A DNA stretch of 64,000 nucleotides from a virus. Taxonomy: Duplodnaviria > Heunggongvirae > Uroviricota > Caudoviricetes. Shown piece by piece: positions 14,991 through 49,400 of this stretch; the first letter of the stretch is position 1; every line of letters starts with the position of its first letter. The position numbers were made by a program, and so were the translations under genes. A model generated the notes under the pieces. It saw only the letters and a list, made by a program, of their open reading frames with translations, searched no databases and was not told where the DNA came from. The DNA lies in IMG/VR virus record IMGVR_UViG_3300047548_000621, positions 8,200 to 72,199 of that record. One strand, 5' to 3'.

Positions 14991-14997
14991 ATTGAAT

Positions 14998-15072: not shown

Positions 15073-15130
15073 ATGAAACTGTGTGCGTTTTTAAAAAGGG
15101 ACGCACGGCCCGAGCAGCCGAAGCTGTAAC

Positions 15131-15208
15131 TGGGGTGGGTGAAGGGATTCGAACCCTCGACATTCGGCACCACAAGCCGACGCTCTAACCAACTGAGCTA
15201 CACTCACC
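15131..15208 (-). tRNA. tRNA-His (GUG) with G-1
   Basis: Anticodon stem UCGGC/GCCGA with loop UUGUGGU. Extra 5' G opposite discriminator C73, which is the bacterial His identity feature. CCA. Confidence 0.7.
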
Positions 15209-15214
15209 ATGAAT

Positions 15215-15290
15215 TGGAGGACCCGCCCGGGCTCGAACCGGGGACCTAGAGATTAAAAGTCTCCCACTCTACCTACTGAGTTACGGGTCC
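15215..15290 (-). tRNA. tRNA-Lys (UUU), second copy
   Basis: Acceptor GGACCCG/CGGGUCC, anticodon loop CUUUUAA, T-arm CCCGGUUCGAGCCCGGG, CCA. Confidence 0.7.
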
Positions 15291-15340
15291 GTAAAACTCT
15301 CAGCTTCGGCTGTAGACCGAACTTAATCGGTCTTAAAAAC

Positions 15341-15417
15341 TGGTGCAACCAGAAGGATTCGAACCTTCAACCTTCGGTTTCGTAGACCGATGCTCTATCC
15401 AGTTGAGCCATGGCTGC
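15341..15417 (-). tRNA. tRNA-Arg (ACG)
   Basis: Anticodon stem UCGGU/ACCGA with loop CUACGAA, T-arm GAAGGUUCGAAUCCUUC, CCA. Confidence 0.75.
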
Positions 15418-15428
15418 GTGAAATTGTT

Positions 15429-16085
15429 TTATAATGATTGTAGTCTATCTATAATAGAATTACGTTCTTCAATTGTGTTTTCTTTTAGGTCTAGAGGATA
15501 GAAAAACGCCATCGGAAGTTCAAATGCCGGCACTGACTCTAGTCCACCCTTAATTGTTTGGTTGTGATAAGTTTTAGCATTTAAACTAAAAACACTCTTG
15601 TTTTCAGCTTCATATTGCTCTATCAAGACAGGTGTACTTGAAGGGAAACTTTCATTGGGATCAGATACCTCACCCGGAACTTCATAAAAATTAATTAAAC
15701 TGTTGTTTGCGCCATCAAGCAAAAAAGTTAATGTGTAGTCAGAAGTGGTTGGGTGCAGATGTTTGTGTATATTTAAAGTAACGTTATTCAACCCAAATAA
15801 CATAGGCAAAAAGTTATATTTCTTACATAATTCAGAAATATTGGTCCTGTTAATTACTTCACTATAAAGTAATTGATCTATATCTCTCACTTCATCCGCA
15901 AGAGCATTGAAACTCATATAAGTTTGTGTACCAGTAACCGTCTGATATAATCCAGATGCCCAGCAATACGAATTCTGTACTGAAGGATCTAACTCATAGA
16001 CCAGAGAGAAGGCTTCTAGAGTGGAAGTGACAATTTCATTGTACACTGAATCTGACAGAATTACGGGAACATAATTTTTTGACAC
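15429..16085 (-). CDS. Hypothetical protein
   Basis: 218-aa ORF inside the tRNA array. No recognisable motif. Confidence 0.4.
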   Translation of the reverse strand: MSKNYVPVILSDSVYNEIVTSTLEAFSLVYELDPSVQNSYCWASGLYQTVTGTQTYMSFNALADEVRDIDQLLYSEVINRTNISELCKKYNFLPMLFGLNNVTLNIHKHLHPTTSDYTLTFLLDGANNSLINFYEVPGEVSDPNESFPSSTPVLIEQYEAENKSVFSLNAKTYHNQTIKGGLESVPAFELPMAFFYPLDLKENTIEERNSIIDRLQSL

Positions 16086-16138
16086 CAGGAAACTTTTCCT
16101 TTTTTGTTATTTAGTCCCGAAATTATTCGTAATTAATA

Positions 16139-16215
16139 TGGTAGACCCTGAGAGATTCGAACTCCCGACCTTCTGTTTCGAAGACAGACATTCTATCCAG
16201 CTGAACTAAGGGTCC
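16139..16215 (-). tRNA. tRNA-Arg (UCG)
   Basis: Anticodon stem UCUGU/ACAGA with loop CUUCGAA, T-arm GGGAGUUCGAAUCUCUC, CCA. Confidence 0.75.
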
Positions 16216-16226
16216 AAAATATTATA

Positions 16227-16300
16227 TGGTGCTCCCAGGAGGTACCGCCCCTCCGGCTCATCATTACCAATGATGTGTATTGCTTTTATACTATGGGAGC
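16227..16300 (-). tRNA. Atypical tRNA-Thr (GGU)-like with non-canonical T-loop (GGCGGUA) and D-loop (AAAAGCA)
   Basis: Perfect acceptor GCUCCCA/UGGGAGC with CCA. Anticodon stem CAUCA/UGAUG with loop UUGGUAA. T-stem GGAGG/CCUCC is perfect but the loop has no TΨC, and the D-loop has no GG. Confidence 0.4.
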
Positions 16301-16331
16301 CGACATCATATTTAGTATGCTAATTCCGGTG

Positions 16332-16928
16332 TTAATTTAAAGGAAGTCCTCTTGATGCTCTGCCATTGCCCTTATTACGACCTTTCCAAGTCGGCGTAAT
16401 ACTATGACAATTAGGACAAACTAATCTAAGGTTGGCGAATTCGTTATTTCCCGCGTTGCCGTCAATATGATCTAATTCCAACGACAATTTTGCGCCGCGC
16501 CATTCCGATATGCCACATTCAAAGCAGTTGCTTCCGTACTCACGAATCAACGCAGTTTTGATAGTCGTTCGTTCGGTTAGGTTTCCTTCATATAATCGTT
16601 TTTTAGTGTCCTCTCTAGTAGGAATATGCTGGCAATCTGCACTACAATATTTTTTTACTAGGTGCTTAGAAGAGGTGTGTTTTTTTCCGCAGCCTGCACA
16701 TTCCCATTCTACTTTGGTAGCTCTATTTTTATTAGAATGGGTAGCGGCGCAAGTGTGGTTACAGAATTTTTTGTGCCTATCAACATATGATAGTGTTTTG
16801 TTGCATTCCGCACAAGAACTAGGAGAACTGTCATAAAGTTCTACTCGTTGCAGTTTTTTCTTTTCTAAGGTAGCTCTGGCTTTTTTCATACCAAGCGCGC
16901 CTGCTTCTGCTTTTGTTAGTTTTCGCAT
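16332..16928 (-). CDS. HNH homing endonuclease
   Basis: 198 aa. LELDHIDGN...LRLVCPNCH HNH motif, several CxxC pairs. Confidence 0.6.
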   Translation of the reverse strand: MRKLTKAEAGALGMKKARATLEKKKLQRVELYDSSPSSCAECNKTLSYVDRHKKFCNHTCAATHSNKNRATKVEWECAGCGKKHTSSKHLVKKYCSADCQHIPTREDTKKRLYEGNLTERTTIKTALIREYGSNCFECGISEWRGAKLSLELDHIDGNAGNNEFANLRLVCPNCHSITPTWKGRNKGNGRASRGLPLN

Positions 16929-16993
16929 ATAATACTCTCCACAATGTATTTATGCTCTAGGTTCAAAACCAGCTAAAAGCAGCATTATAAAGT

Positions 16994-17067
16994 TGGATGC
17001 CCCTCTAGGACTCGAACCTAGGTTGACGGATTCAAAGTCCGCTCTCTTACCACTAGAGGAAGGGGCA
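16994..17067 (-). tRNA. tRNA-Gln (UUG)
   Basis: U1-A72 acceptor (UGCCCCU/AGGGGCA), anticodon stem GCGGA/UCCGU with loop CUUUGAA, T-arm CUAGGUUCGAGUCCUAG, CCA. Confidence 0.65.
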
Positions 17068-17085
17068 ATGTCAACTTGTAGACAC

Positions 17086-17114
17086 ATTATATATGCGATT
17101 GCATAAAATGTCAA
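17086..17114 (-). promoter_or_regulatory. Sigma70 / T4-early-like promoter, near consensus (minus strand)
   Basis: Minus strand reads TTGACA, 17 nt, TATAAT, about 20 nt upstream of tRNA-Gln(UUG). Confidence 0.55.
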
Positions 17115-17120
17115 ATAAAA

Positions 17121-17196
17121 TGGATGCCCGAGATGGGGTCGAACCACCAACCTCCTGGTTCAGAGCCAGGCGATCTGCCAATTGATCTATCGGGCA
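17121..17196 (-). tRNA. tRNA-Gln (CUG)
   Basis: U1-A72 acceptor (UGCCCGA/UCGGGCA), anticodon stem CCUGG/CCAGG with loop CUCUGAA, T-loop GGUUCGACCCC, CCA. Confidence 0.7.
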
Positions 17197-27275: not shown

Positions 27276-27350
27276 TGGCGCGCTCGGTGGGATTCGAACC
27301 CACTGTCTCGGGCTTTAGAGACCCTTGCAATACCATTTAGCCTCGGGCGC
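27276..27350 (-). tRNA. tRNA-like gene, candidate amber suppressor (CUA), anticodon arm ambiguous
   Basis: Acceptor GCGCCCG/CGAGCGC (one C-A mismatch), D-loop with GG, T-arm GUGGGUUCGAAUCCCAC, G73, CCA. Standard numbering gives stem AGGGU/GCCCG (27-43 mismatch) and loop CUCUAAA. The alternative is a perfect 5-bp stem GUCUC/GAGAC with an 8-nt loop. Confidence 0.4.
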
Positions 27351-28414: not shown

Positions 28415-28627
28415 TCATCGTTTTATCTTTCGCAACTTACTATTTATATAGTATATTGCTATGAAGGGCGAAACGACCAAAACGCCTATCAAGAATAAAA
28501 TTATCATCATTAACGACAATAACTCATCTGATAGGCGTTTTAACATTATACTACTTGAAACAAAACTAAAGCAAGAATTCCAGTTAGATATAGGAATGTT
28601 CTTCCCCAGCCCGAGTAGACCAACCAA
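28415..28627 (-). CDS. Small membrane protein
   Basis: 70 aa, hydrophobic. Confidence 0.3.
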   Translation of the reverse strand: MVGLLGLGKNIPISNWNSCFSFVSSSIMLKRLSDELLSLMMIILFLIGVLVVSPFIAIYYINSKLRKIKR

Positions 28628-28850: not shown

Positions 28851-28912
28851 TTTACATTCTCCGTAGCAATCTATTAGAATCTCACTATATGTTATTTATG
28901 TTCCTAAGTCAA

Positions 28913-28940
28913 CCAAAAAAATAGCCTCTTTCGAGGCTAT
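28913..28940 (-). terminator. Rho-independent terminator (hairpin with T-runs on both sides, so effectively bidirectional)
   Basis: AUAGCCUC-uuuc-GAGGCUAU with A7 on the plus strand upstream (U7 on minus) and a U-rich run downstream. It sits just 3' of the TonB-receptor gene. Confidence 0.55.
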
Positions 28941-28963
28941 TTTCTTTTATTGAGATTGTAACA

Positions 28964-31204
28964 TTAAAAGTGAAGTCCCAACGAGACTCCATATGTCCTG
29001 GGCTCTCTAGCAAAAGCCAAAGACCAAAGACCTACTAGGTTTCCTGCGGCGTGAACTGGGCCTCTAGAATTAAGTAAATTGTGACCCCAAAATGTCAACT
29101 TAGCATCTGCGCCATTAAGTGAAAACGATGTAGCTACACTTGCATCTAATAGATTCAGCGCAGGTGAGCGAACACCTGGGTCCATTGTCAATACTTTATA
29201 ATTTTGTGTCCCGTTTGCATTTGAACTTAGTAAAATTCCAGGTCCTTGCGAATTATAAACATCGTGTGGACCTACGTAACGATAAGCAAGATTAAAATTA
29301 ACATTTTTTAGTGTATAATTAACACTCGCTGTTCCCATAAACTTTGGAGCGTAGATCATATCTACACTAGACAAGTCGTAGGTATCAGTCAATGGAGCCA
29401 AATTCGGGTTAGGAGAATTAATAACAAATCCATTATAACTCGTCTTTAATGCAGAAAATGAACCATTAAATGTTAAATTATTAACTGGCTTATATGAAAG
29501 TTCTAGCTCAACGCCTTTAATGTTGCTTGAAGCAACATTCGCAATTACGACCTCATTTCCGGTTGGGCCTCCTGGAATATTAGTAATTTGCTGCATACCT
29601 TTATATTTTGCAACAAATCCAGCAAGTGATATATTCAGTTTGTTATCAAACAAAGAAACCTTGGTTCCTAATTCAAAAGAATCAACAATCTCTGGATTGA
29701 ATGGTGTAGTTGCTGATACAGGAGTCAGTCCGCGTAAAGAAAATCCGCCCGAACGATAACCCTGAGACCAAGAAGCATATACCATAGTATCCTTGTTTAT
29801 ATGATAATCCACGCTAACTCTAGGAGTAAATCTATTGAAATTCTTAGATGAGTCTCCTAGTTGATAGAAGAAGAACTGGTTTAACCACTTCTTGTCGTGA
29901 GTCCATCTGCCCCCCAATTCTAATCGCAAGTTGTCAGTAATATTTGCGTTAACATCACTGAAGAAAGCGTAAGAAGTTGTTCCTCCCTTAGCAACTTGAG
30001 CATTAGGTAACGAAAGAGAACCCCCGACCCACGAACCAAAGAATCTAGTGTTCATTGCGTGGTAGTAGCGACCATCATAGAAATAAGCACCAACTACATA
30101 ATCAATAGAATTATTAATGTTGCCTGCTGCTCTCAACTCTTGACTATATTGACGAAATGTTTGTTGTCTATAGATAGCAGAAAAATCCAATGAAGTTCCG
30201 TCAAAATCCTGCCACTGATATTCGGTTGACTTCCTATAAGATGAAATGGATGTTAGCTTGACTGCATCAAGATCGTAATTCATTTCCAACGTCACTGATG
30301 GAGCAGAAAAATATGTTTTAGGTTCGTTACCATCAATAGTATTTCCAAAAACAGTGTATAAATCAGAAGTTAGATTGCGATTGCATTGGTTAGAAGGAAT
30401 TAATGCACAAAGATATTCGCCGTTTTTAGTTGTCGAAGAAACATAAGGATTTGATTCTTGAATCTGCTTCTCAACAGTTAATAAAGCATTAAAATTATTG
30501 CTGGGTTCATATAAGAAACTTGCACCGAAGTTTTCATTATTATATCCTCCTACACTCTTTCCATCAGATGCTCGGTGTAGGAAGCCGTCGCTTTGACTAT
30601 GAAAATACCAAAGCTTAGTAGAAATAGAGTCTGCCAACTTAGGCAAGTTTACTACTGTTTTTGCAGTGTATGAATTATAATTTCCGTAAGATACATCTGC
30701 CTTAACATCAAGTCTGCCTAGAGGTCTTGTTCTCTTGATATTAATTACGCCGCCTATAGTGTTTCTACCGAACAGAGTTCCCTGAGGACCTCTCAAAATT
30801 TCAAGTTGTGAAGTATCATACAAATCCAAATATTGTCCAGTGCTTGTTCCGATAAAGACACCGTCAACCACTACAGCAACTGTTGGGTCATAGGATTTTT
30901 CAACATCAGCAAATGACATTCCCCTGATAGATACACTTGCTGTTCCGGCTGCCGAAGGCTGTGCGTTGAAAAGCACATTTGGGGCAATGCCCATCAAGTC
31001 GCCGGTGTTTACATTACCGCGAAGATCCAGCGTTTTTGAATCAATTGCAGTGATGGCGATAGGAGTATTTCGTAGTTCTTCGTTTCTGTATCTAGCAGTA
31101 ACGATGATATCATTGGGATTTTCTGTCTCAATTTTATTAGGTGCAGCGATTGCACTAGTTGATGCTAATAATGAAAGACATAGCCCAAATAAATATTTCT
31201 TCAT
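28964..31204 (-). CDS. TonB-dependent outer-membrane receptor
   Basis: Internal Met at 31202-31204, with an AAGGAAAG Shine-Dalgarno, is taken as the start. Signal peptide, TonB-box-like DIIVTA and a plug region, about 700 aa of alternating beta-barrel pattern, C-terminal aromatic residue (...LGLHF). Confidence 0.7.
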   Translation of the reverse strand: MKKYLFGLCLSLLASTSAIAAPNKIETENPNDIIVTARYRNEELRNTPIAITAIDSKTLDLRGNVNTGDLMGIAPNVLFNAQPSAAGTASVSIRGMSFADVEKSYDPTVAVVVDGVFIGTSTGQYLDLYDTSQLEILRGPQGTLFGRNTIGGVINIKRTRPLGRLDVKADVSYGNYNSYTAKTVVNLPKLADSISTKLWYFHSQSDGFLHRASDGKSVGGYNNENFGASFLYEPSNNFNALLTVEKQIQESNPYVSSTTKNGEYLCALIPSNQCNRNLTSDLYTVFGNTIDGNEPKTYFSAPSVTLEMNYDLDAVKLTSISSYRKSTEYQWQDFDGTSLDFSAIYRQQTFRQYSQELRAAGNINNSIDYVVGAYFYDGRYYHAMNTRFFGSWVGGSLSLPNAQVAKGGTTSYAFFSDVNANITDNLRLELGGRWTHDKKWLNQFFFYQLGDSSKNFNRFTPRVSVDYHINKDTMVYASWSQGYRSGGFSLRGLTPVSATTPFNPEIVDSFELGTKVSLFDNKLNISLAGFVAKYKGMQQITNIPGGPTGNEVVIANVASSNIKGVELELSYKPVNNLTFNGSFSALKTSYNGFVINSPNPNLAPLTDTYDLSSVDMIYAPKFMGTASVNYTLKNVNFNLAYRYVGPHDVYNSQGPGILLSSNANGTQNYKVLTMDPGVRSPALNLLDASVATSFSLNGADAKLTFWGHNLLNSRGPVHAAGNLVGLWSLAFAREPRTYGVSLGLHF

Positions 31205-31306
31205 ATTTCTTTCCTTTATACTAATAATTATCTGAAATAATATGTTCCAAAAAAAATCCAGATAAGGCGGTGCCCACTCTTTCAAGCGGGCACCCATTTT
31301 ATCTAC

Positions 31307-32686
31307 TTACTTAGAAGTTTCTTTCTTAGCAGGTTTTGCGTTAGGTGCACCCAACTTAGTGATTACACCGTTGACAAGAGCCTGACCTTCTTCTGTCTGG
31401 CTAAGAGCAGTCAACATACCTGCAATGCTAGTTCCGCCCGCCGGGCTGAACACGCCTGCAAGATTAGACATACCGCTCTGTACATCACCGCCGTTAGCGA
31501 TGATCTTAAGATCAGCAGCCTTAATAGCTCCAGCCATTTCCTTACCAACAGCTTCGGTAGCTTCAACATTACGAATCTTGATGAGATAATCCTGATAACT
31601 CTGGTTCTCACCGATTTCCTTAGCAAGCGTCATTTGAGCGTTAACCGGGGCAAGCAAGATAGCCTTTTCAGCTTCACCCTTAGCGATACCCTCAGCCTGA
31701 ATACCTTCTGCATTCTTGAGAGTAGCCTGTAGATTACCTTCTGCAATCTTAATTGCAGCTTCACGCTCGGCTTCTGCACTCACCACCTTGACTCGCTGAT
31801 CCTGCTCTGCCTTAACAACAGCAACTTCACGCTCGATTTCAGCAGTCTTGACGCTCTGAACCTTCTGTACTTCCATCTGTCGTTCAGCAGTAGTCTTAGC
31901 TTCTGCCTGAACTTCCTGCTCACTCTTTTCCTGAGCGATGCCGACGATCTTTTCCTTTTCGGCTTCACGAAGACCGACAGTCTGTTCAGCTTCTGTCTTG
32001 CTCAATGCAATCTGTCGCTGGGCTTCAATTTCTCGGGATTCAGCTTCCTGCAAGTTCTTCGCAACTTCCATACGACTTTCCTTTTCAATAAAGGACTTTT
32101 TCTTCGCCATAATGTTGTGAATAACCTGGCTGTTCTGTGCGTCACGAATGTTCATAAACTCAATAGTCTTAACAGTCTGGACACCCCATTCCTTAAGACC
32201 TTCGTCAACAACAGCAGAGAATTCTGCGCCCATTGTAGCACGATCTGTCATAATGTGATCAAGGGTATACTTAGCAAGAACATTACGAACAGCACCTTGT
32301 AGAACACCAGATAGCTGATCCTTGAGTTCCTGGAAGTTAGAAACACGCTGGGCAGCAGTCTGACTATCGCTTACTCGGAAGAATGCACGAACGTCTACGA
32401 GAAATTCAAGACGATCAACGTCATATGCATCGTAATTGAGCAGGTTCAAGTCAAACACTGACAATGGGAACTTACTGACTGTGACACCGATCTTGGGAAT
32501 CCAGCTGGGGAATTCATAGTAGCTGTTGCCGGCTTCAAGTCCAGACCCATATGAGATAGACTTCTTACCTGACTGAACGATATGCACTTCGTTAGTAGGG
32601 ACAACAACGCGCCAAAAGAGGGCGCAAATAATGCTAATGCCGACAATAGCAGCAAGAGCAATCAAACCAATAAAAATCATATTCAA
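31307..32686 (-). CDS. SPFH/band-7 (flotillin-like) membrane protein
   Basis: 459 aa. N-terminal TM helix, SPFH-like region, then a long Glu/Ala/Lys-rich coiled coil (EAEKEKIVGIAQEKSEQEVQAEAK...). Confidence 0.7.
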   Translation of the reverse strand: MNMIFIGLIALAAIVGISIICALFWRVVVPTNEVHIVQSGKKSISYGSGLEAGNSYYEFPSWIPKIGVTVSKFPLSVFDLNLLNYDAYDVDRLEFLVDVRAFFRVSDSQTAAQRVSNFQELKDQLSGVLQGAVRNVLAKYTLDHIMTDRATMGAEFSAVVDEGLKEWGVQTVKTIEFMNIRDAQNSQVIHNIMAKKKSFIEKESRMEVAKNLQEAESREIEAQRQIALSKTEAEQTVGLREAEKEKIVGIAQEKSEQEVQAEAKTTAERQMEVQKVQSVKTAEIEREVAVVKAEQDQRVKVVSAEAEREAAIKIAEGNLQATLKNAEGIQAEGIAKGEAEKAILLAPVNAQMTLAKEIGENQSYQDYLIKIRNVEATEAVGKEMAGAIKAADLKIIANGGDVQSGMSNLAGVFSPAGGTSIAGMLTALSQTEEGQALVNGVITKLGAPNAKPAKKETSK

Positions 32687-32692
32687 TATTCC

Positions 32693-33214
32693 TTAGTTAG
32701 AGTTAGAGGTAAGAACAACGATAGTAGGATCGCTGATACGAAACGGCTTGTCACTGTAAAGGTACTTACCAGCCCACTGAAAATACTGACCATCAGTAGT
32801 CCAGAAGAACACATAAGGGGTAGAGTTACCATAAGTGCCTTCATCGCTAGGAGCTTCGACTACTTCATAGCTACATCCGCCACCTGCGACGCCAAGACAC
32901 TGAAATTCCTGAGGGCGAGTCAGTCGCTTGCCACCAGAAGTGATCTTACCCTTGACACTTGCATACATTACGGGCTTGCCCATTTCATTAAGCAATAGAA
33001 CGAATCCGATCTGACCCGGATTACTTGTCAATTCAAGACGCTGCTTGATATTGTCAATTTCAGCATTTTCATTAAACTTAATTGAATTAGCGGCAGCAGC
33101 AGCCTTTTCAGCTTGAACATCCTTAGCAGTCTTTGGCTCAGACTGAACATCACACCCAGCAAGAGCAAATGATGCTGCAAGAGCAGCAACAATTCCAAAC
33201 TTATTCATAATCAT
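32693..33214 (-). CDS. Lipoprotein
   Basis: Lipobox LAGC after the signal peptide. Immediately downstream of the SPFH gene, so probably the same operon. Confidence 0.45.
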   Translation of the reverse strand: MIMNKFGIVAALAASFALAGCDVQSEPKTAKDVQAEKAAAAANSIKFNENAEIDNIKQRLELTSNPGQIGFVLLLNEMGKPVMYASVKGKITSGGKRLTRPQEFQCLGVAGGGCSYEVVEAPSDEGTYGNSTPYVFFWTTDGQYFQWAGKYLYSDKPFRISDPTIVVLTSNSN

Positions 33215-33218
33215 TTCC

Positions 33219-33617
33219 TTATTCGCAAACAGTTACATCAAGTTCGTAGGGAAGGTTGCGATCCTTAAACAGCCCACGATTAAGCTTCTTACTATCAGCA
33301 TTATAGCCATTAGCAAGTTCTCGGCAGCTTTGCTTCATACCCGAGAGTTCGATCCTAAGATTAGTCTTTTCAGTAGGATCAGTCGTTTCTGCAAGCAATG
33401 CCTTGTGTTCCTTAATCTGCGAAACACGAGATTCATAGTTTGCATTAACATCGAAGAATCGTTCATAATTGAAAACGATGTTGTTGGTTTCAAGTGTCTT
33501 GTTGATGACACGGCCGGGAGCAGTAGCAGCGGTATTAAAAACACCGAGATAAGTGCATCCTACCGGGACTGCAACCAGAATTAGGGCACCAACTGCCACT
33601 ATGCGTAATACGGACAT
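33219..33617 (-). CDS. Membrane-anchored hypothetical protein
   Basis: Internal Met with an AAGGAG Shine-Dalgarno is taken as the start. N-terminal TM/signal (MSVLRIVAVGALILVAVPVGC). Confidence 0.4.
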   Translation of the reverse strand: MSVLRIVAVGALILVAVPVGCTYLGVFNTAATAPGRVINKTLETNNIVFNYERFFDVNANYESRVSQIKEHKALLAETTDPTEKTNLRIELSGMKQSCRELANGYNADSKKLNRGLFKDRNLPYELDVTVCE

Positions 33618-33673
33618 TTTTACTCCTTTATGCCGTTGTAATAATATAGTTATATGTGAATGTATAGAGAATG

Positions 33674-33958
33674 TCAAGCAGAGATTTCAGCTTCGGGCAA
33701 ATCAATATGTCGAGGTCCTTCGGTCTTGAACCACTCAAGAACCTCTTGCTTATTCTTACCGAAGAAGGAAACATCCATACCAAAGTGCTTGGTACTATTG
33801 AAAATCTTACCCTGCCAAGCTGGCCCGCCGGCATTCTTAGGACGACTGGTAAACTTAAGTTGTCCGACAACCTTGCCGTTATACTTGACAGCAAAAGTGT
33901 GAAAACGTTCGTTCTGCAAATCTGCAAAACCGTTGAGAACTTTAGCGAGAGTCCACAT
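33674..33958 (-). CDS. Hypothetical protein
   Basis: 94-aa ORF. Confidence 0.3.
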   Translation of the reverse strand: MWTLAKVLNGFADLQNERFHTFAVKYNGKVVGQLKFTSRPKNAGGPAWQGKIFNSTKHFGMDVSFFGKNKQEVLEWFKTEGPRHIDLPEAEISA

Positions 33959-34287: not shown

Positions 34288-37200
34288 TTATTTTACCCAG
34301 CAATCACAATTGCACTCAATAACCTTAGCAATCGCATCCTTGACGCTTAATGTTGCCGGAAGCAGTGTGCTGCTTGTATAGTTAGGATCTAAATTATAAG
34401 GGACATTTGAAGGATCTAACTGGGAAGGAGGCTGAATTATAGGTATGCCGTCGTCACCTAAGTTGTTCGGTGATTCTGTAACTCCAGTCAAATCAGTGTC
34501 AGGCATATAGATAGTAGAATTTTCATCTGATGTGCTAGGACCAACTGGTACATATGGGCCGACAACCGGATTGTCTGTTGTGCCGGCTATAATAGGATCA
34601 ATGACACCAAATGCAGGCGCAACATCAGTTGTTTCTTCAAATGTTCCAATCAATCCGGTATCAGTGGGCGTATATATTCCATCTGGAATAGGGCTTACTT
34701 CTTCATTGTTTATAATATTAACAGGCCAAGATGGCTCAGTATAGCCATTTATATCATTGTTTAGTCCAGCTAGAACAGTTCCATTTGTCGTTAATGTTTT
34801 AAAATCCATTGCTGATATTTCGTCAGGGATATTATTATCTAACCCAATACCAATATTTGACAATCGCGCTTCATTTCTATCTTGTCGCATTGCACCCACA
34901 ACACTTTGACCCCCTACTAGATCAAGATTGCTTATTGCTTCAAGTGTCTGCACTGACATATGGGGCCTAGTGTCTTGTGCAAAGCCGGGGAGTGCATCAA
35001 CAAAAACAATAGTTGTTGTGGGATAAGGATTTATCCAAGTATTTTGTGGAATTGGAACAGGTTGTAATAGATTATATCTAGTTCTCTGTTCAATCAATAA
35101 TTGCTCACCCAAAAGATTCCAAAAAATGTTTAAGTATTCTGCTTCTTGAGGATATGTCAATGCAAATTCTTCTATGAATTCATTTGCCTGATCAATATAT
35201 GCTTGAACCACTCCATTCATTGGACTAGCCCAACCAGTCGTGCCGTCAGGCGTATTAGTTCCGCCCGTTGCTACTGAACCGTCTGGCTGAATTGGGAGAG
35301 TAGCAGTCGGGGGACATTCTACTGTAATAGTTACATTTGGGGGCGCATTGCCTCCTGTTAGTGATGGCGGATTGTCATTTAAATAATTATAGACGGTGTT
35401 GTAATTCACCGAAGAGCCGTCGTTGGGGGGACCAAACGTTATTCGGCCGAACGTCCCTTCTCCGTTTGACCCCGCATTTTTATCATCAGTCCCTACAATA
35501 GCAGTCATTGAAGCACCTCCGGGATTGGGAGTAATTGTAACAACCGGGGCGGGTGCCGTTCCTCTACCATATCCTCCTCCTAAGCCATCACCGGCAACAG
35601 CTAACGTATACGAAAGTGTGTCTATTCTAGGCTGACAGCAAGGGTCTGTAGTTGGCGTCCCAGTACCGCATTGCAAATATGGATTCGTTGGGTCAATTGA
35701 AGGATAATCAGGATTGGCTGCATTTGCAATATAATGCTGAACGTTTGTATAGGTTGGAGTAACTTCTACTGTAGCGGTAGCTGGTTCCCATTCTACTGCT
35801 AAAAATAACTGCTGATATATGTTTTTTAATTTGTCTAATGGCAATTCGTTAAACTTATTATAAATCGCTTCCCAAGGATAGGGAAGTCCACTCATACAAC
35901 CGAACATATCAGAAAATGTATAAGTTCCATATGGTCCTGTTCCCAAAGATAAATTCGTTATCGCGTTGTCAGTTGATGCTTGATTTGTGGGTTTACTAGT
36001 ACCATTGATCAATGACAGCCCGGCAGTATTTTCCATTGCTTTAGCGACTTTAGCAAACTTCTTAGAATCTGCCTGGTGAATCTTACCTACTTGACGCATA
36101 GTGAATTGAAATGCGCCGGCGGCTATAGCCTGGTCATCCGGTAATATTCCTCGTAAGTAAGAACCAAATCCTTGCGTAGGCTCTTGATAATTTTCAGGAG
36201 ATAAACTACCTTCTGCAATGGGAGGAGGACCATATGGAAGTTGCACTCCCACATAATCTTCCATATCAGGAGTAGATAACGCAGAATTTACTCCCTCACC
36301 TTCGTAAATCAAATAGTATGTTTTACTATTTGTAGGTAATCCTACCTCGCTATTATACATAGGAACAGTTAATGATTGATATGAATTAGGGAAAAGCTTT
36401 TTAACATCTAACAAATCAGCTAATGATTCTAATCCTGCTGTTTTACATTGCAAAGATGCTAAGATAGTTGCAAGATTTTGTCCTTGAATTAATTTAAATG
36501 ACTCGTATATTTTTTGTTCTTGATCCGTAGTAGGTCTTGTTAATGTACCGTTAGTGATCGCAGCTATCTCTGATCCTGACAATCCCGCAGTAAGCAACAA
36601 TAAAGAAAGGTCTTGCGTAACCGCAATGTTTTTACCAAGAATTTCTAACAAGACAGAAGGTAAACCAAATGCATCCAGTCTACTTAAATTTATTATTTTA
36701 CCTAACTTTTCTAAATCGCTTCCAAATTCTTTAGTTGATAAACTAATTCCAGATACATCAGCAGTAATTAAGTCATCCATATTACTATAGATATTATCCA
36801 TAAAATCATCAGAATTATGCGAGGTCATTATAGCACGATTAATATAATCTATAGCACTAGACGCTGACAAAAATGATCCGCAAAATTGACCATAGTCCGG
36901 ATTCGCTTGATCAGGAACGCCATTATAATTAAACTCATCCCACGCTTGTAGTGCGTGTAATCTTGCATAACCCCACTGAGTTACTGATTTATTGGGGTTA
37001 GAAGTATCATATGGTATCCAAGAAGCTTCTTGGCCCTGCCCAGTGTTTCCTGAAATACCATACGAAGTCGCGGCAGGTGTCCCTGCATCAGTCCATTTAC
37101 CAGAAGGATCATTGTCCTTAAAAGTAGGTGGTTTGGCGTTACCTAATGCTTCTACTTGATCTTCACCTATCGAAATTAGATTATCGTATGTCGAGTTAGT

Positions 37201-37434
37201 GACAGTTTTTTCTGGACCGGATACTGCAACACCGCGAGCATATGCATCATTAATCGCATAAGTCAATAGTCGTAATACGGTTCCGTTAACTAGTTTTCCC
37301 ATATCATACTGAGAATTAGTTTTGCTTTTTCCTATATATGATTCAGCTACCGGGTTAATGTTCAGTCCCGTATTAACTAGAAATGATCCTAAGACATTTA
37401 CTCCTAATGGATTTTGTTTACCTGTGTCTGACAT
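34288..37434 (-). CDS. Large virion-associated protein (baseplate or tail candidate)
   Basis: 1048 aa with Gly/Pro/Thr-rich segments. Immediately upstream of the PAAR gene. Confidence 0.4.
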   Translation of the reverse strand: MSDTGKQNPLGVNVLGSFLVNTGLNINPVAESYIGKSKTNSQYDMGKLVNGTVLRLLTYAINDAYARGVAVSGPEKTVTNSTYDNLISIGEDQVEALGNAKPPTFKDNDPSGKWTDAGTPAATSYGISGNTGQGQEASWIPYDTSNPNKSVTQWGYARLHALQAWDEFNYNGVPDQANPDYGQFCGSFLSASSAIDYINRAIMTSHNSDDFMDNIYSNMDDLITADVSGISLSTKEFGSDLEKLGKIINLSRLDAFGLPSVLLEILGKNIAVTQDLSLLLLTAGLSGSEIAAITNGTLTRPTTDQEQKIYESFKLIQGQNLATILASLQCKTAGLESLADLLDVKKLFPNSYQSLTVPMYNSEVGLPTNSKTYYLIYEGEGVNSALSTPDMEDYVGVQLPYGPPPIAEGSLSPENYQEPTQGFGSYLRGILPDDQAIAAGAFQFTMRQVGKIHQADSKKFAKVAKAMENTAGLSLINGTSKPTNQASTDNAITNLSLGTGPYGTYTFSDMFGCMSGLPYPWEAIYNKFNELPLDKLKNIYQQLFLAVEWEPATATVEVTPTYTNVQHYIANAANPDYPSIDPTNPYLQCGTGTPTTDPCCQPRIDTLSYTLAVAGDGLGGGYGRGTAPAPVVTITPNPGGASMTAIVGTDDKNAGSNGEGTFGRITFGPPNDGSSVNYNTVYNYLNDNPPSLTGGNAPPNVTITVECPPTATLPIQPDGSVATGGTNTPDGTTGWASPMNGVVQAYIDQANEFIEEFALTYPQEAEYLNIFWNLLGEQLLIEQRTRYNLLQPVPIPQNTWINPYPTTTIVFVDALPGFAQDTRPHMSVQTLEAISNLDLVGGQSVVGAMRQDRNEARLSNIGIGLDNNIPDEISAMDFKTLTTNGTVLAGLNNDINGYTEPSWPVNIINNEEVSPIPDGIYTPTDTGLIGTFEETTDVAPAFGVIDPIIAGTTDNPVVGPYVPVGPSTSDENSTIYMPDTDLTGVTESPNNLGDDGIPIIQPPSQLDPSNVPYNLDPNYTSSTLLPATLSVKDAIAKVIECNCDCWVK

Positions 37435-37442
37435 AATAATCC

Positions 37443-37709
37443 TTAAGGTACAAAAATGTCTGGGCTACCTTGCGAAATAGGATGACCGCAAGTATTTCCT
37501 GACCCAACCCGTAGAACAGGACAATTTTCAACAAACACAGTAGGACTACCTTCTGTGGTTTTTGCTGAGGCGTGTGGACCAATACCGTGAGAAGTAATAT
37601 CGCTTACGTGCAGTCCTACTGGAATACCGTTTGCAAATACTGTTCCTGCACCGCGTATAATTCGGCCGCCGCCGGAATCTTGATCGCCTTTTCTACTAAG
37701 TTGTGGCAT
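37443..37709 (-). CDS. PAAR-repeat spike-tip protein (T4 gp5.4-like)
   Basis: 88 aa. Gly-rich PAAR-like repeats (GGGRIIRGAGTVFANGIPVG...) and C-terminal Cys/His. Confidence 0.65.
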   Translation of the reverse strand: MPQLSRKGDQDSGGGRIIRGAGTVFANGIPVGLHVSDITSHGIGPHASAKTTEGSPTVFVENCPVLRVGSGNTCGHPISQGSPDIFVP

Positions 37710-43489: not shown

Positions 43490-46400
43490 TTAGAAGAAAA
43501 GAAAGAATTGTCCACCGACAGTAGAAATTAATACACCTATCATATAGGTTATATTAAGATAATCTACCGTGCCAGCAACATAATATATGCCAGTATTATT
43601 TCCATTATCATCTGTATTAGCTCCGACATTCCAAGCAGTAGCTTTACTAAGTGTATATTGACTTGTATTTGTAGATGTCAGATATGTTCTTACATTTGAG
43701 ATACCGTTGACGCTGAATGTGGTCAGACTTTGTGTAGATCCACCTTCAAATAAAATAATAGTAGGCGATGCTGAATTAGTCAAAGTATCAATTGTATTAT
43801 TACCATAGATGAATAAAGGACTAGCGCCAGCAGATATAGTTCCGTACTCTAGACCGCCACCATAGAATGACTGATTTCCAGCAGTACCAGTGAATGTTAT
43901 ATTAAGTGGTGTTGTATATGTTAAGCCTGTAGTATTTTCTATTTCAAATACTGGTATAAATCGTGAATATCCTGAAAATACTCCTTCATCTTTACCGGTA
44001 ATATTAATTTGACCTGAACCTTGAGTAATAGTTTTAGCTGAAGTATCTAATATACTAATACCTTTTGTTGTTAGATTAAATCCGTTCAAATCAAATGTAC
44101 CTGAGACTAGATAAAAGCCTCCTGTGTCATTTGTGGAGTTTAAAGTTAGATTGTCAAGTAGCCTCAATGTTCCTGAAGTTTTAATTACTTCTATTAAGAT
44201 ACCCCCTGATCTACCATTTGATTTAATAGTCTGATCTGTTGATCCTCGAAATGAAAAAATAAAATTAGTAGTAGTTAAATCTACTGAGCTACCTAAATCA
44301 ACATCACCATAAATAAAGATAGAATTTGAAAGACCAGTAGGTTTTCCCCCGAATCCAGTTAGATTTAAGTTATTGATATATCTGTTAGTTAGATTCAATA
44401 TATCTGTTCCAGCAGTTACATTAATATTTACAGAAGTGACAGAAGAATCAAGTAAATTTATACTTCTCGTTCCAGTTGCACCACTATAAGTACAATTGAA
44501 CGTAGGTGTGCCGGTCATAGTGAGATATGTTCCTACACCATTTTGATAACTCAAAATAGTAGCACTATTACCAGTCAAATTAATTGTACTAGTACCAAAT
44601 GTTATAGTTCTATTAGTAGGAACAAATGTTTCTGTAAACGAAGCACCAGTCAAAGTAAACCCATTTAGATTAAGCGTACCTCTTCCATGTGTAATAGTAC
44701 CTGTTGTAGTCGTAGCAGCACTTAACTGAACCGTTCCTGTATTAACAAGATTCAGACCATAGGTCATTGTGATACCAGCAGTATTAATACTTTGTGTGCC
44801 AGTTCCAATAAAGTTGATAGCTGTCGTACCAGAAGAGGTCAACGAGCTATAAAGAGTTAAACTACCAGTCATCCAAGGCGCAAATGATGTACAAGCTAAA
44901 GTTGTAGCCGTAGTTCTAGAAGCATATGTAATTGAACCGACAAGATAGTTTGCATTATATGTTACTACTTGACCAATTGCGGTACCATTATTTGTAAATG
45001 CAGCAGTATCCTGTGCTAATGGAAAGTTATTTAAAGCAGGAGTACCAGACGGAGCAGTAGCCCAAGCAGTAGCAGACCAATTTTGAGGAGTACCTGTTAA
45101 ATTCCAGTATACAGTTTTAGCTGCTGGAAATGTAATATTGCTATTACCACTACCATTACCCAGTCTTGTACCTGACCATGTACCAGCAGCACCAGCCGCT
45201 GTAATATTATGGAAATCAATATCTGTAAAAGTTCCGACCGCTGCTGCTGTAATTGTTGTAGTTGTGTCAAACGAATACAAAAATGTTCTATAGATTACAC
45301 TGGTACCAGCATTAAGTGTAAATGTTCCATTAACTGTTACACCAGTACAGCCTTGGAACTGAATTCGAGATATGCCGACGGAACCTGATCTACCAGTAAC
45401 CGTGAAATTATTACAAGTAAACGAAACCGTAGATGTATACGCCGTACTACCTATATAGGTTGAACTGCCGATATAGATATTACTGATTGTGGTATTAGTA
45501 AATGAAAGATTACGAAATGTAGCCATACCATCTAGAATTAAGGCAGATGTTGTTCCGCTAAATGTTATAGTACTTGTACCGGCGTTGAATGTAGTTGAAC
45601 CATTACTTAACCCGTAAAGTCTAAGTCCAGTACTAGAGGAGCCTCCAGTTATAGTTATTGTGGAGGAACCTAGATTTGTTGTTCTATTAAATGATGAACT
45701 AGAGTCAATATAAACTCCTGCACAAGTTACATTATAATTTTGGGTATTGAAAGTACCAAAATATTGCTGTATTTCGCTACCTAATGTTATAGCAGAGCCG
45801 AGATTAAGAGTACCAGAGCCGTATACTAACAATGATCCTGTAATTGATATAGCAGAACTAGTAAATGTTTGTGTATCTGTATTAATAAAAACAAAACTAT
45901 AACTAACGCCCGAAACTGTTACACCAGAGCCTAAATTAACATCTCCATTCACGACAGGATAATTAAAACCAGGTATACTTAATGTTACAGCACTGGTTCT
46001 GGCACTCATATTAAGAGTACCTATCATATAATTAGCATTTATGGTAACGGTAGTTGCTGCTCCGGTATTATCAAAAATACAAGTATCTTGTGGCAAAGGA
46101 AAGTTTGCGGCAGCAGGTGTGCCACCAGAACTTGTAGCCCAAGCTGTAGCATTCCAATTTTGTGTACCAGTTAGATTCCAATAAACAGTCTTTGTTGCCG
46201 CGAATGTAATATTACTATTTCCCCCTGCATCGCCAAGCCTTGTGCCTGTCCATGGTGTAGCTGGACCAGAAGCCACAATATTTTTGAAATCAATATCATC
46301 AAGACCTGAAATAGCACCAGCATAAATTGTTCTTGTGGCAGGTGTGAGGCTGCCAATAAATGCGAGCCTAGCAGTATTAAGTAATGTTCCTGTTACAGAT

Positions 46401-49400
46401 AAAGTGCCATTGATAGTTTGATTGGCATTAAATACTACTTGCACATAAGAAGCTGCGGCTGGATGCGTAAATGTTAGATTGTTATAGGTATTAGCGCCAT
46501 TAAAAGTCATATCCGTAGGCGCTGTAGATGTGAATGACATGTTATAAAATGTCTGTCCGCCCCCCTGCAATGTTACACTAGCACCAGAAAAACTAATCGT
46601 AGATGTTCCGGAACTAAACGTAAGACCAGTAGTAGTAAAATTCCATACTGTGCCAGTGCCAGATAATGCGACTGTAGAAGCACCAAGTGTAATAGAACGA
46701 GTATTGCTATTACTAGAGGATAATGAAGCAGCAGTTACATTGAAGCCACCAGTAGAAAACGTTCCTGAGTTAATAGTCAACGCATTTGCACCAATGTTAA
46801 GAGCATCCTGTAATGTCCATCCACCTGTAGTTGATGAGAAGGTAATCGGGAATCCAAGAGTCTTACCATTTGATCTTATAGTCTTACCCGTCGATGATGC
46901 TGCAAATGTTAAAGCATTAGCACCAGCTGTCACAGTCATACCAGTTGATACGGTTAAACTTCCAAAAAGTGTTAGTGCTGTGTTAGCCCAGGTTCCTGTG
47001 AAGCCGGTAAAATCTAAGTCGCGTATATTCCCAGCCGTAATTGTAACAGTAGCAGCCCCAGCACCTGATATTTTGAATGAGATTGAATTAGTCTCATCAG
47101 GTGCACCTGGTGTAATAGTTTTAGCAGTCGTTGTAGCATTGGTCATATTTACAACAGGCGTGCCGTAGATAAACAACTCTTGTACTGATGTTGTGTCCCA
47201 TACAGTACCAGTACCATTTACAGCAATAGTACCAGATGATCCAAAATCAATAAAACGAATATTTGAGTTATTAGACGCAAAGTTATTACAAGTCAGCGTA
47301 AAGTTATTAAGAATCAATGAACCATATGTAAGAGTGACACCGTAGGTCGTACCTGTAGTCATAGCATCTTGGAGAGTCCACTCGCCTCCGATACCATTAA
47401 AGACAACAGGAAAGCCTAATGTTTTACCTGCAGATGTGATAGTCTTACCAATTGAAGTAGCAGCAAATGTTACCGCGTTAGCACCAGCTGTAACAGTCAT
47501 ACCGGTAGCAATATTAAGACTGCCATAGATGGTCAGTACAGTATTGGCCCACGAACCGGTGAAACCTGTAAAGTCTAAATCCCGTACATTACCGGCTGTA
47601 ATTGAAACTGTGCCAGCACCTGCCGTGACATAGAAATTAATAGAATTGGCTTCTGACACCGCGCCCGGTTGAATAGTTCGTGTAATACCAGCGCCGGCGG
47701 CTCCAGTCAATCTAACATTTGAAGTGCCAAGAATAGTAATACTTGGTACCGCCACAGCAGGCACAAACCAGACAGTAGTAGTAGTTGTAGCAGTAAGATT
47801 TATTGTACCTGAGTTACCGAAATTAAGTTGCGTAGTAAGTGTATTTGAACCAAACTCAAACGTGGTCGCTTGCAAGGTATAATTATTTAGATTAAGCAAA
47901 CCACTGCTAAGAACAAATGAATTTGTAGAAGTAAAATTACTACCTAATGTAACAGTTCCTGCATTGTTATTATCTGTGCCTGTAATACTAACTACTGCGC
48001 TTATGGTAGCACCATTAGTAGTTAATGAGCGTGAAGATCCAGTAATACTATACATATTTAAAATAGCGGTACCACTTATAGTAAGCGATGAGCTAAGTGT
48101 AATATCACCTAATATTAGGATTCCGTTATTAACTATGATGGAAAATGCGCTTGTTCTAGTAGATGTATCTAAATCTGTTATATTATAACCAATTTGATCT
48201 ACTGTAATAGAAGTTCCAGCTGAAGAATTATCTATAATAACTGTATCTTGAGGTAACGGAAAGTTGGATAAACTTGGTGAACCTCCAGACGAAGCTGCCC
48301 AACCATTTGATGACCAATTATTAGCGCCGGCTAAATTCCAATATACAGTTTTTGGTGCGTCAAATGTAATATTTGTATTATTTCCTATATCACCAAATGA
48401 TGTACCAGTCCATGGTATAGAAGATCCAGCCGCGGTAATGTCTGAAAAATTAACATATGAAAGTGAAATTGCATTAGCCGTAATTTGTCTAATAGACCCG
48501 CCACCACCAATACTATATCTTTTCGTTTCGTCTGTACCGTTAGCAGTTAATGTGCCATTAATGATTTGATTAGCATTAAATGCTACAGAAGCTCTTGTGG
48601 TAGTCGTAGGAAAACTTAAATTATTAAAGGTGTTAATTCCAAATATAAAATAATTTGTTACGGCGCTGTTAGTAAAGCTTACATTGTAAAACGTTTGGCC
48701 ACCACCTTGAAATGTAGTACTAGATCCACTTGAACAATTGATTTGACTCGTACCAGAACTAAATGTAAGATTGGTAGATGTAGTAAAATCAACAGGTGTT
48801 GTTCCAAGGAGCGATACTGTAGATGAACCAAGAGTGATCGTTCTTGTATTTGAGTTGCTAGAGCTTAATTGTGAAGCAATAACACTAAATCCATTTGTAT
48901 TGAGTGAACCATTTGTGACTGTGATAGCACCAGCTGATGACATAGCATCTTGAAGCGTCCAGCCGCCACCAACACCATTAAATGTTATTAACGCAAAAGT
49001 TCTACCTGCACTTGTAATAGTTTTACCTGTAGTGGTAGCGGCAAAAGTAAGACCGTTCGAAGCAAAAGTTACGCCTGATACATTAGTCAAGCTACCATAG
49101 ATAGTTATAGTTGCAGTAATAGTACCCGCGAATCCGGTAAGATTTAGATCATTTACAAAGTTATTATCTGTAAATAATACGGTATCAGTCCCAGCAGAAA
49201 TATTAAAACTAAATGTAGTAGCAGTTGTGCCTGATGTAATAGTTCTTGTACCAGTAGAACCAGCATATGTACAATTAATAACAGGTGTTCCAGATACAGT
49301 CAAATTTGTTTGAGTAGTAGCATCAAAGATTGTTGCGCCATTACCAGTAAGAGTTAAATTACCTGTACCAAAGTTAAAAGTTCTAGCGGTAGTACCTGAA

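Follow-up and report, generated by a model that had tools for sequence, protein, structure and literature searches.

Phage-encoded outer-membrane receptors and flotillins

A SusC-like receptor of the marine megaphage Mar_Mega_1 and of LR745206 has been reported as an AMG (PMC9723777), as have six TonB-dependent transporters in phages of ammonia-oxidising bacteria (bioRxiv 10.64898/2026.05.02.722434), and in both studies a role in uptake was proposed. The locus described here lies in a window of 64,000 nucleotides (the whole stretch of viral DNA that was analysed) and resembles these cases in carrying a full-length TonB-dependent receptor (TBDR) in a large phage, read as a boost to uptake. It differs in that its receptor is of a ~745-aa type nearest to alphaproteobacterial receptors rather than to SusC, siderophore or haem receptors (LR745206 gave no match to the window receptor at E 1e-5), belongs to a clade so far seen only in phage contexts and sits in a well-delimited variable slot that follows a flotillin operon. 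The window TBDR is optional cargo, and genes of its kind have been reported from other big phages.

Lambdoid phages also encode outer-membrane proteins, as lysogenic-conversion genes or morons, including the Lc porin of PA-2 and Lom and Bor of lambda. Like these, the window gene encodes a host-type outer-membrane beta-barrel in a phage, has its own terminator and is dispensable for virion assembly. However, Lc, Lom and Bor are prophage-expressed genes of temperate phages, while no lysogeny-related genes were found among the annotated ORFs of the window, and the window gene encodes a predicted 22-strand gated transporter with no private promoter found.

Phage flotillins, a label that the sources give to SPFH homologues, have been annotated in isolates (PMC13384950), and the family present in the window also occurs in Brevundimonas phages Domovoi, Kabachok and others, Ralstonia phage RP13, Xanthomonas phages X1 and BUDD, and Vibrio Thalassavirus phages. 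Unlike in the window, flotillin stands alone in these cultured phages: a TBDR is present in none of four inspected regions, and queries with the membrane protein and lipoprotein described below gave no match in the Brevundimonas, Ralstonia, Xanthomonas and Vibrio groups. Bacterial flotillin operons are of the NfeD-FloT/YqiK and HflK/C-FtsH types (PMC2636767), and like them the window encodes, behind genes for small membrane proteins, an SPFH protein with a membrane anchor and a long helical stretch. It departs from them in that Pfam, even with E up to 10, finds no NfeD partner in the upstream genes, the model for the bacterial FloT equivalog scores far below its cut-off (NF058507, 17.9 bits vs 700), and the upstream pair belongs to a phage-specific family. 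A preliminary description of the locus held that this gene set has no described function in phages; no function has indeed been demonstrated, but phage TBDRs and phage flotillins had already been reported in the three phage studies cited above.

Organisation and phage origin of the locus

The block consists of four minus-strand genes, which by ORF reading encode a 132-aa membrane-anchored protein (33219..33617), a 173-aa lipoprotein (32693..33214), a 457/459-aa SPFH/flotillin-like protein (31307..32686) and a 746-aa TBDR (28964..31204). These identities, proposed in the preliminary description, are borne out by Pfam matches (Plug, TonB_dep_Rec_b-barrel, Band_7), by a lipobox and by the ORF limits. 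The 132-aa protein starts at the ATG at 33617, the very end point given in the preliminary description, where start and RBS could be read, and upstream of it reading and a motif scan located a sigma70-like promoter sequence on the minus strand (TTGACA-N17-TATAAC, 33647..33677). Equivalent sites (TTGACA/TTGACC-N17-TATAAG/TATAAT) are found at the matching place in the related contigs L008 and L022, and the site presumably acts as a promoter from which the modules would be co-transcribed.

Just after the flotillin stop lies a GC-rich hairpin (31262..31294, minus strand), followed 11 nt later by T8, in a 76-nt spacer with a folding energy of -28.8 kcal/mol (z -4.5). Hairpins of different but complementary sequence occupy this position in L008 and L005, and L022 has a canonical terminator there. 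This hairpin is probably an attenuator or RNA-stabilising element, marking the start of a variable cargo slot. The unit is closed by a strong, symmetric intrinsic terminator hairpin (28918..28943) with an 11–14 bp stem flanked by an A-run and, on the opposite side, by a T7 run (-22.3 kcal/mol, z -6.25), in agreement with the bidirectional terminator previously noted. A second sigma70-like promoter (TTGACT-N17-TATAGT, 28884..28912, minus strand) begins the next transcription unit, that of a 73-aa gene, and L005 and L006 conserve both the terminator and the following promoter behind their cargo.

A scan of the window found 23 sigma70-like motifs on the coding strand vs 3 on the other, almost all below 34.3 kb, and the block lies at the edge of this promoter-rich auxiliary/tRNA region. 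It had been placed between phage auxiliary genes and the virion structural module; the first boundary holds, but the second does not, as the block is preceded by small ORFs, a 1048-aa protein, a PAAR protein and RNR genes, and no contiguous structural module immediately adjoins it.

The region is phage DNA and not an assembly chimera, as is clear from an identical 13.4 kb, with identical junctions, in a second assembly and from the presence of a TBDR in the same slot in four related contigs (L005, L006, L106 and L109), which are syntenic with the window and 70–88% identical to it in flanking genes. Megablast of 10 kb against INPHARED gave no match, and tblastn with the 1048-aa and 1176-aa proteins found no close cultured relative.

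The TonB-dependent receptor

The receptor ORF spans 28964–31297 and is free of frameshifts. Its likely true start is the ATG at 31204 (MKKYLFGL...), which gives a protein of 746 aa, homologues being 740–750 aa. Pfam identifies a Plug domain (9.1e-16, above cut-off) and TonB_dep_Rec_b-barrel (1.7e-37), and an AF2 model shows a folded plug and barrel (pLDDT 80.8, pTM 0.82) for which the best Foldseek match is FyuA (E 4e-49, TM 0.89 on target). The FhuA-pb5 and FhuA-Llp complexes are also among the structural matches. An AxA signal-peptide cleavage motif, the TonB box DIIVTA and a terminal Phe were read by eye; signal peptide, TonB box and C-terminal Phe are conserved in all ten clade members and in bacterial homologues, and an alignment of 36 sequences, the window's included, has well over 100 invariant columns. 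The gene is thus intact and not a pseudogene. With its plug, modelled 22-strand barrel, Sec signal, TonB box and C-terminal aromatic residue, the protein is predicted to be a TonB-dependent outer-membrane transporter and has the features expected of a working, exported receptor.

In a simple neighbour-joining tree, which carries no bootstrap support, the window TBDR groups in a clade with P0001–P0009, of which P0001, P0002 and P0008 are confirmed on phage contigs; to judge from these sequences the clade occurs so far only in phage contexts. Its nearest homologues outside the clade, in a search of 5.8 billion sequences, are chromosomal alphaproteobacterial receptors with at most 51% identity.

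The preliminary description had proposed to choose between a BtuB-like and a siderophore subfamily; we found the receptor to be neither BtuB nor any recognised siderophore receptor. It shares the TBDR fold with Escherichia coli BtuB but is ~150 aa longer, and BtuB models match its plug region only (TIGR01779, 37.3 bits vs cut-off 599.7; PRK10641, 31.0 vs cut-off 836). Among models for named siderophore and haem receptors (FhuA, CirA, FepA, FoxA, TonB-hemin and others) the best, TIGR01785, scores 71.6 bits against a cut-off of 316.85, and all specific NCBIfam receptor models score far below their cut-offs. Riboswitches or leaders preceding the TBDR were sought with Rfam over 26–35 kb; only the tRNA and chance matches came up, and no cobalamin riboswitch.

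Modular composition of the block

In L008, the closest relative, the slot behind the flotillin gene is empty, and L022 also lacks the TBDR; both keep the other three genes, co-conserved at 61–91% identity (the 132-aa protein at 89% in L008 and 61% in L022). In L005, L006 and L106 the slot holds an MTA/SAH-nucleosidase-like gene, the TBDR and a second, BtuB-like TBDR that matches end to end (271–293 bits). Upstream of the flotillin gene, L109 has another Band_7 gene in place of the membrane-protein/lipoprotein pair, and L005 has a partial ORF with no lipoprotein match, none being found elsewhere in L005. The four genes are therefore separate modules, not one co-inherited unit. Presence or absence among relatives, together with the terminator, identifies the TBDR as phage moron or auxiliary cargo, with half of the expected transcription signals in place since a private promoter was not found.

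The flotillin-like protein has an N-terminal membrane anchor and a long Ala/Glu/Lys-rich helical region, both read from sequence, and belongs to the SPFH/Band 7 superfamily (Band_7, 4.5e-18, 66.4 bits vs cut-off 23.6, residues 28–211). It is 47–59% identical, over ~90% of its length, to the Brevundimonas, Ralstonia, Xanthomonas and Vibrio phage proteins, and occurs in > 100 metagenomic clusters (62–100% identity), a minority of them on contigs of 100–455 kb. Many large phages carry it by itself. Among 80 other flotillin loci, a single one lies within 7 kb of a TBDR, and 79 have none of the remaining three genes nearby. A scan of IMG/VR with the flotillin found five loci, none with a TBDR, and a scan with the TBDR found no match.

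The 132-aa protein is signal-anchored, and its predicted periplasmic C-terminal domain carries a Cys pair. Its family comprises 282 representative clusters and includes Arthrobacter phage Bauer gp66, Salicola phage SCTP-2 gp523 and Rhizobium phage N34 gp220; the Bauer and SCTP-2 proteins have the Cys pair at corresponding positions. The 173-aa protein has the lipobox LAG|C of a bacterial lipoprotein, with predicted lipidation at Cys21 (invariant in 32 sequences), and its helices precede a small beta domain. In neither protein did Pfam, with E up to 10, find anything meaningful. In Bauer and SCTP-2 the pair occurs with neither flotillin nor TBDR, and it is a two-gene cassette widespread in phages and of a phage-specific family.

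The architecture of the pair is like that of a two-component (Rz/Rz1-type) spanin. Spanin pairs, however, are required only where an outer membrane exists and usually sit in a lysis cassette. A homologous pair is present in Bauer, whose host Arthrobacter is Gram-positive, the conserved globular beta domain of the lipoprotein also speaks against a spanin, and no endolysin or holin match was found in adjacent genes or other scanned ORFs of the window. A SusC/SusD- or TbpA/TbpB-like pairing of lipoprotein and receptor was likewise rejected, since the flotillin gene separates the two and the lipoprotein occurs without a TBDR in L008, L022, Bauer and SCTP-2.

A possible role in nutrient uptake

We propose, with a probability of about 0.45, that the receptor is an accessory uptake gene in an authentic, composite phage block and relies on host TonB. 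A sigma70-type promoter would serve three modules: the membrane-protein/lipoprotein pair, both members of which would face the periplasm; the flotillin-like SPFH protein; and, after the hairpin, the variable cargo slot, closed by the strong terminator and holding a single TBDR in the window's phage. The TBDR would be made during infection, probably early, and would reach the outer membrane via the Sec and BAM machineries of the host, whose TonB-ExbBD would energise it. There it may increase uptake of a scarce nutrient or cofactor whose supply limits phage production.

Slot contents that come and go among relatives are typical of accessory metabolic cargo, and the BtuB-like receptor and nucleosidase in relatives, together with two B12-type radical SAM enzymes encoded in the window, lend the slot a metabolic, cofactor-supply flavour. 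The same role has been proposed for other phage TBDRs (PMC9723777; bioRxiv 10.64898/2026.05.02.722434). Counting against uptake are the absence of the TBDR from the closest relative, the lack of a detected private promoter behind a hairpin that could lower read-through, and the faster divergence of the TBDR than of flanking genes. If the receptor works as proposed, the virus equips the outer membrane of its host with a gated importer of its own. 'Auxiliary metabolism' would then reach beyond cytoplasmic enzymes to the acquisition of nutrients at the surface of the cell, which would bear on trace-nutrient cycling and on how infected cells compete. The slot is itself a natural experiment, being empty in one relative, holding one receptor here and a nucleosidase with two receptors elsewhere.

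A more specific version, which we consider improbable, is a modular cofactor-acquisition cassette behind the flotillin operon, in which the ~745-aa receptor, with or without the BtuB-like receptor and an MTA/SAH (perhaps 5'-deoxyadenosine) nucleosidase, would keep the phage's two B12-dependent radical SAM enzymes supplied and relieve their inhibition, the window phage keeping a reduced version. Viral enzymes would then be served by an outer-membrane import route that the virus itself encodes. The earlier suggestion that the receptor feeds these enzymes with B12 is not supported for the window TBDR itself, given its low BtuB scores and the lack of a riboswitch, but gains indirect support at the level of the lineage from the BtuB-like receptor, the nucleosidase-like gene and the two radical SAM enzymes.

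Alternative explanations

The receptor, alone or with early membrane proteins, might instead alter the cell surface to exclude competing phages or bacteriocins, replacing or diluting a host receptor in the manner of the PA-2 Lc porin, or serving as a decoy carried by vesicles or debris. Phages and colicins classically use TBDRs as receptors (e.g. FhuA-pb5, FhuA-Llp), the gene lies in a promoter-rich, probably early region beside three other envelope proteins, and variable presence among close relatives is common for exclusion genes. The window TBDR is also only 54–59% identical to its phage relatives, compared to 70–91% for flanking genes, a fast divergence that might be due to surface-directed selection of the sort expected under an exclusion or receptor role. 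However, the divergence is not concentrated in loops (strands 0.58 identical, non-strand positions 0.55), and the full conservation of the TonB box, plug and barrel motifs points to selection on transport. An extra receptor alone does not block entry; the known factors that exclude TBDR-using phages (Llp, Cor) are small lipoproteins obstructing the receptor of the host, not added receptors. The cassette partners in relatives are metabolic. We think exclusion an unlikely role.

That the four proteins form one envelope-spanning microdomain built by the phage (flotillin scaffold, membrane protein, lipoprotein and receptor), as the preliminary description suggested, seems more doubtful still. All four genes lie close together on the same strand, bounded by a single promoter-like site and a single strong terminator, and the first three are conserved together in L008 and L022, but their separate distributions leave the assembly unsupported: the TBDR is missing from those same two relatives, L109 and L005 have no lipoprotein match upstream of flotillin, the pair occurs without flotillin in Bauer and SCTP-2, and almost all other flotillin loci lack the remaining genes. 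A conserved hairpin also separates flotillin from cargo, and no NfeD-type partner was detected.

Recent capture of a neutral or decaying host gene, or misassembly with host DNA, is essentially refuted: the gene type is typical of bacteria and TBDRs are rare in cultured phages (matches in 6 of 50,697 records), but the junctions are identical in two assemblies, the slot is common to five phage genomes, the phage receptors form their own clade distant from any bacterial protein, GC (~0.385) is close to that of the phage, and the ORF is intact with all conserved motifs.

The locus also draws attention to two widespread phage gene families, the flotillin and the membrane-protein/lipoprotein pair; in Domovoi the flotillin gene also adjoins NAD-salvage genes.

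Gene content and phage origin of the block

The four genes recognised in the preliminary description are present, consecutive and on the minus strand, at exactly the limits it gave (28964–33617 in the ORF listing). They encode a 132-aa membrane-anchored protein, whose ATG start at 33617 is preceded by AAGGAG, a lipoprotein (32693–33214, minus strand) with an LAG↓C lipobox whose Cys is invariant in 32 homologues, an SPFH/flotillin-like protein (31307–32686, minus strand) and a TonB-dependent receptor (ORF 28964–31297, minus strand). The Pfam families expected of the last two were recovered, Band_7 in the flotillin (4.5e-18) and both Plug (9.1e-16) and TonB_dep_Rec_b-barrel (1.7e-37) in the receptor. 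An internal ATG at 31204 lies just downstream of an AGGA ribosome-binding site, and the product from this start (MKKYLFGLCLSLLASTSAIA↓AP...) is 746 aa long, which fits its homologues (740–750 aa); 28964–31204 is therefore likely to be the receptor gene. From an alignment of 36 sequences AlphaFold gave a confident model (pLDDT 80.8, pTM 0.82) with a plug within a barrel. Among solved structures it matches FyuA best (Foldseek E 4e-49); Fiu, PqqU, FhuE and FecA come next, and BtuB ranks below them.

The genes of the window are those of a large phage, among them a class Ia ribonucleotide reductase, NAD-salvage enzymes, a peroxiredoxin, tail-fibre proteins and HNH endonucleases. Its parent is a 120,127-bp JGI contig (Ga0451681_0000026 of 3300043399), itself incomplete, and a second assembly, from Logan (SRR35181290, 17.1 kb), is identical over 13.4 kb that include both receptor junctions. 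No close cultured phage was found for the window. Four short contigs of related phages (L005, L006, L106 and L109) share the order flotillin – receptor – small ORFs – 191-aa gene – suppressor-type tRNA – peroxiredoxin, with flanking proteins 70–88% identical to those of the window, and the GC content of the receptor gene (~0.385) is in line with that of the phage. Given this gene content, the second assembly, the syntenic relatives and the matching GC, sequence evidence excludes chimerism and pseudogenisation to the extent that it can, and the block stands as genuine phage DNA with an intact receptor gene.

A cluster of 34 tRNA genes (2992–17196, minus strand) has HNH and endonuclease-I-like genes scattered between its members, and a weak SAM-decarboxylase-like ORF lies within the same region (8414–8806, minus strand). 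A tRNA with anticodon CTA, of the amber-suppressor type (27276–27350, minus strand; ARAGORN label 'Pyl', Rfam tRNA 50 bits), is flanked by the peroxiredoxin gene and an 84-aa gene, in a region kept in L005 and L006.

Three independently distributed modules

Judged by sequence comparison, the block is made up of three modules, each with a distribution of its own: the pair formed by the membrane-anchored protein and the lipoprotein, the flotillin, and the receptor. In L008, the closest relative (a 317.7-kb NCBI metagenome contig), the pair is adjacent and 89% (132-aa protein) and 82% (lipoprotein) identical, with a flotillin 90% identical, while a further relative, L022, retains the pair at 61% and 72% identity in a neighbourhood that is otherwise different. 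Adjacent homologues with no flotillin occur in Arthrobacter phage Bauer (gp66–67; 2917–3773 of region L024) and in the 440-kb halophile phage SCTP-2 of Salicola (gp523–524; 2854–3879 of region L025), the homology resting on profile and phmmer matches at E 2e-15 to 1.8e-11 with a small candidate set as search space. On this homology the pair is defined as a widespread two-gene phage cassette, and its recognition as one that crosses the Gram divide appears to be new here. A spanin function was considered for the pair and ruled out, since the homologous pair of phage Bauer belongs to a Gram-positive phage. An N-in signal anchor characterises the 132-aa protein, whose Cys pair falls at positions matching those in its homologues from Bauer and SCTP-2. 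The lipoprotein is predicted to fold into three helices plus a small beta domain, in a weak model (pLDDT 66) whose fold search returned no informative match.

The flotillin is far wider in distribution than the pair, and stands alone in the regions inspected. It is 47–59% identical to proteins of Brevundimonas jumbo phages, Ralstonia phage RP13, Xanthomonas phages X1 and BUDD and Vibrio Thalassavirus phages, and matches more than 100 metagenomic clusters at 62–100% identity, of which a minority lie on 100–455-kb contigs. Among 80 further metagenomic flotillin loci, the pair lies upstream only in a duplicate of L008, and a TonB-dependent receptor within 7 kb occurs only in L069 (2266–3984 of a 33.6-kb contig), where it shares 32% identity with the BtuB-like receptor of L005. 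Besides the flotillin, L008 (13004–13801) and L109 (1075–1872) encode a shorter Band_7 protein of 265 aa, in L109 directly upstream of the flotillin; no counterpart was seen near the block in the window. In Domovoi, a cultured jumbo phage of Brevundimonas (L001, 5926–10397), genes for NMN adenylyltransferase/Nudix and nicotinamide phosphoribosyltransferase follow two genes downstream of the flotillin; the window has the same NAD-salvage genes ~6–10 kb from its flotillin.

A variable cargo slot behind the flotillin operon

Directly 3' of the flotillin stop lies a GC-rich 11-bp hairpin (31262–31294, minus strand), also found in L008 (~11376–11402) and L005 (~1671–1695). Its position is conserved while its stems differ in sequence and keep their complementarity, which suggests a selected RNA structure, possibly an attenuator or stabiliser; L022 has a canonical terminator at this position. 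What follows the hairpin forms a graded series. In L008 a small membrane ORF and then the 191-aa gene come immediately after it, and the window has the receptor, a terminator, a promoter and a 73-aa gene, with neither an MTA/SAH-nucleosidase-like gene nor a BtuB-like second receptor. L109 carries the nucleosidase-like gene (3352–3891) without the second receptor. In the three others (L005 1714–2256 and 4523–6352; L006 2684–4561; L106 1485–6159) the receptor is joined by the nucleosidase-like gene and by the second receptor, 609–625 aa long, whose top end-to-end model is the B12 receptor TIGR01779 at 271–293 bits, below its cut-off. At the end of the cargo, the window, L005 and L006 have the terminator-plus-promoter junction in common. 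This slot and its graded fillings appear to be new here. The stretch separating the slot from the 191-aa gene has a small ORF of ~43 aa with one hydrophobic helix (MLKRLSDELLSLMMIILFLIGVLVVSPF...; 28415–28546, minus strand), which both L008 and L005 retain.

Affinities of the receptor

The nine best matches to the receptor among 5.8 billion proteins are 53–58% identical and form one clade with it in a neighbour-joining tree; all three members checked for context lie on the related phage contigs. Beyond this clade the matches reach at most 51% identity and are receptors encoded on the chromosomes of Sphingomonadaceae and other Alphaproteobacteria, set among ordinary bacterial genes (ribosomal proteins, MlaD, GST). 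A receptor clade known only from phage contexts appears to be new here. As to subfamily, neither BtuB nor any other specific NCBIfam receptor model came near its cut-off. The suggestion of a B12 receptor was not borne out, BtuB models scoring 31–37 bits against cut-offs of 600–836 and the 100-nt leader containing no riboswitch. The haem-receptor family was likewise rejected (71.6 bits against 317).

TonB-dependent receptors have been described in a marine megaphage (PMC9723777) and in phages of ammonia oxidisers (bioRxiv 10.64898/2026.05.02.722434), in both cases read as auxiliary genes, and flotillin/SPFH genes are annotated in phage isolates (PMC13384950). We interpret the receptor as those authors did; what the window appears to add is the phage-context clade and a defined slot behind the flotillin operon. 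The preliminary description knew of no described function for this gene set in phages, and the literature searched yielded no functional study of phage receptors of this type or of phage flotillins.

Putative role of the receptor

The best-supported reading, at a confidence of about 0.45, treats the receptor as accessory cargo: it would enter the outer membrane of the host, be powered by host TonB and raise the import of a limiting nutrient or cofactor. This is favoured because every transport-related motif is conserved (signal peptide, TonB box DIIVTA and terminal Phe are kept in all receptor relatives), because the receptor is variably present among close relatives, whose cassette partners are metabolic, and because the window has two tandem class-B radical SAM genes of B12 type (3283–4812 and 4821–6302, minus strand). 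All top NCBIfam matches of both are B12-binding radical SAM methyltransferase families, far below cut-off, and the presence of the two genes implies that infected cells need cobalamin.

The window's receptor shares only 54–59% identity with those of its phage relatives, against 70–91% for neighbouring proteins, which means either faster evolution or an exchange of the gene; strands and loops share the differences evenly. Fast evolution and the envelope-gene neighbourhood would fit a role in remodelling the surface or excluding competitors, but this lacks a mechanism and leaves the conserved transport machinery unexplained, and we consider it unlikely. More improbable still is that the four proteins form a single complex, as proposed in the preliminary description, since the separate distributions of pair, flotillin and receptor contradict it. 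That the receptor is a neutral passenger, or the region an artefact, is essentially refuted.

Expression signals

The strong bidirectional terminator noted previously was recovered as a hairpin at 28918–28943 (-22.3 kcal/mol, z -6.25), which reads as a terminator both ways because an A-run and a T7 run flank it. A scan of the window for a sigma70-like motif (TTGACx-N16-18-TAxAxx) found 23 matches on the coding (minus) strand and 3 on the other, with 4.4 expected. One lies at 33677, just upstream of the 132-aa gene, with equivalent sites kept in L008 and L022, and another at 28912, after the terminator. The first three genes are spaced by 4–12 nt, and no convincing promoter was found in the spacer before the receptor. 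Host RNA polymerase would transcribe all four genes from the predicted promoter at 33677, probably at an early stage, and the post-flotillin hairpin may modulate read-through into the cargo.

Almost all motifs fall within ~3.3–34.3 kb (3281–34283), the tRNA/auxiliary half of the window, with only two weak matches beyond, and this confinement suggests an early/late boundary near 34.3 kb. A 2321-aa ORF at 43490–50455 (minus strand) has no Pfam match. A PAAR-motif protein (37443–37709, minus strand) is followed by a 1048-aa protein of no database family, the two together spanning 34288–37709, and the latter is 52% identical in L008.
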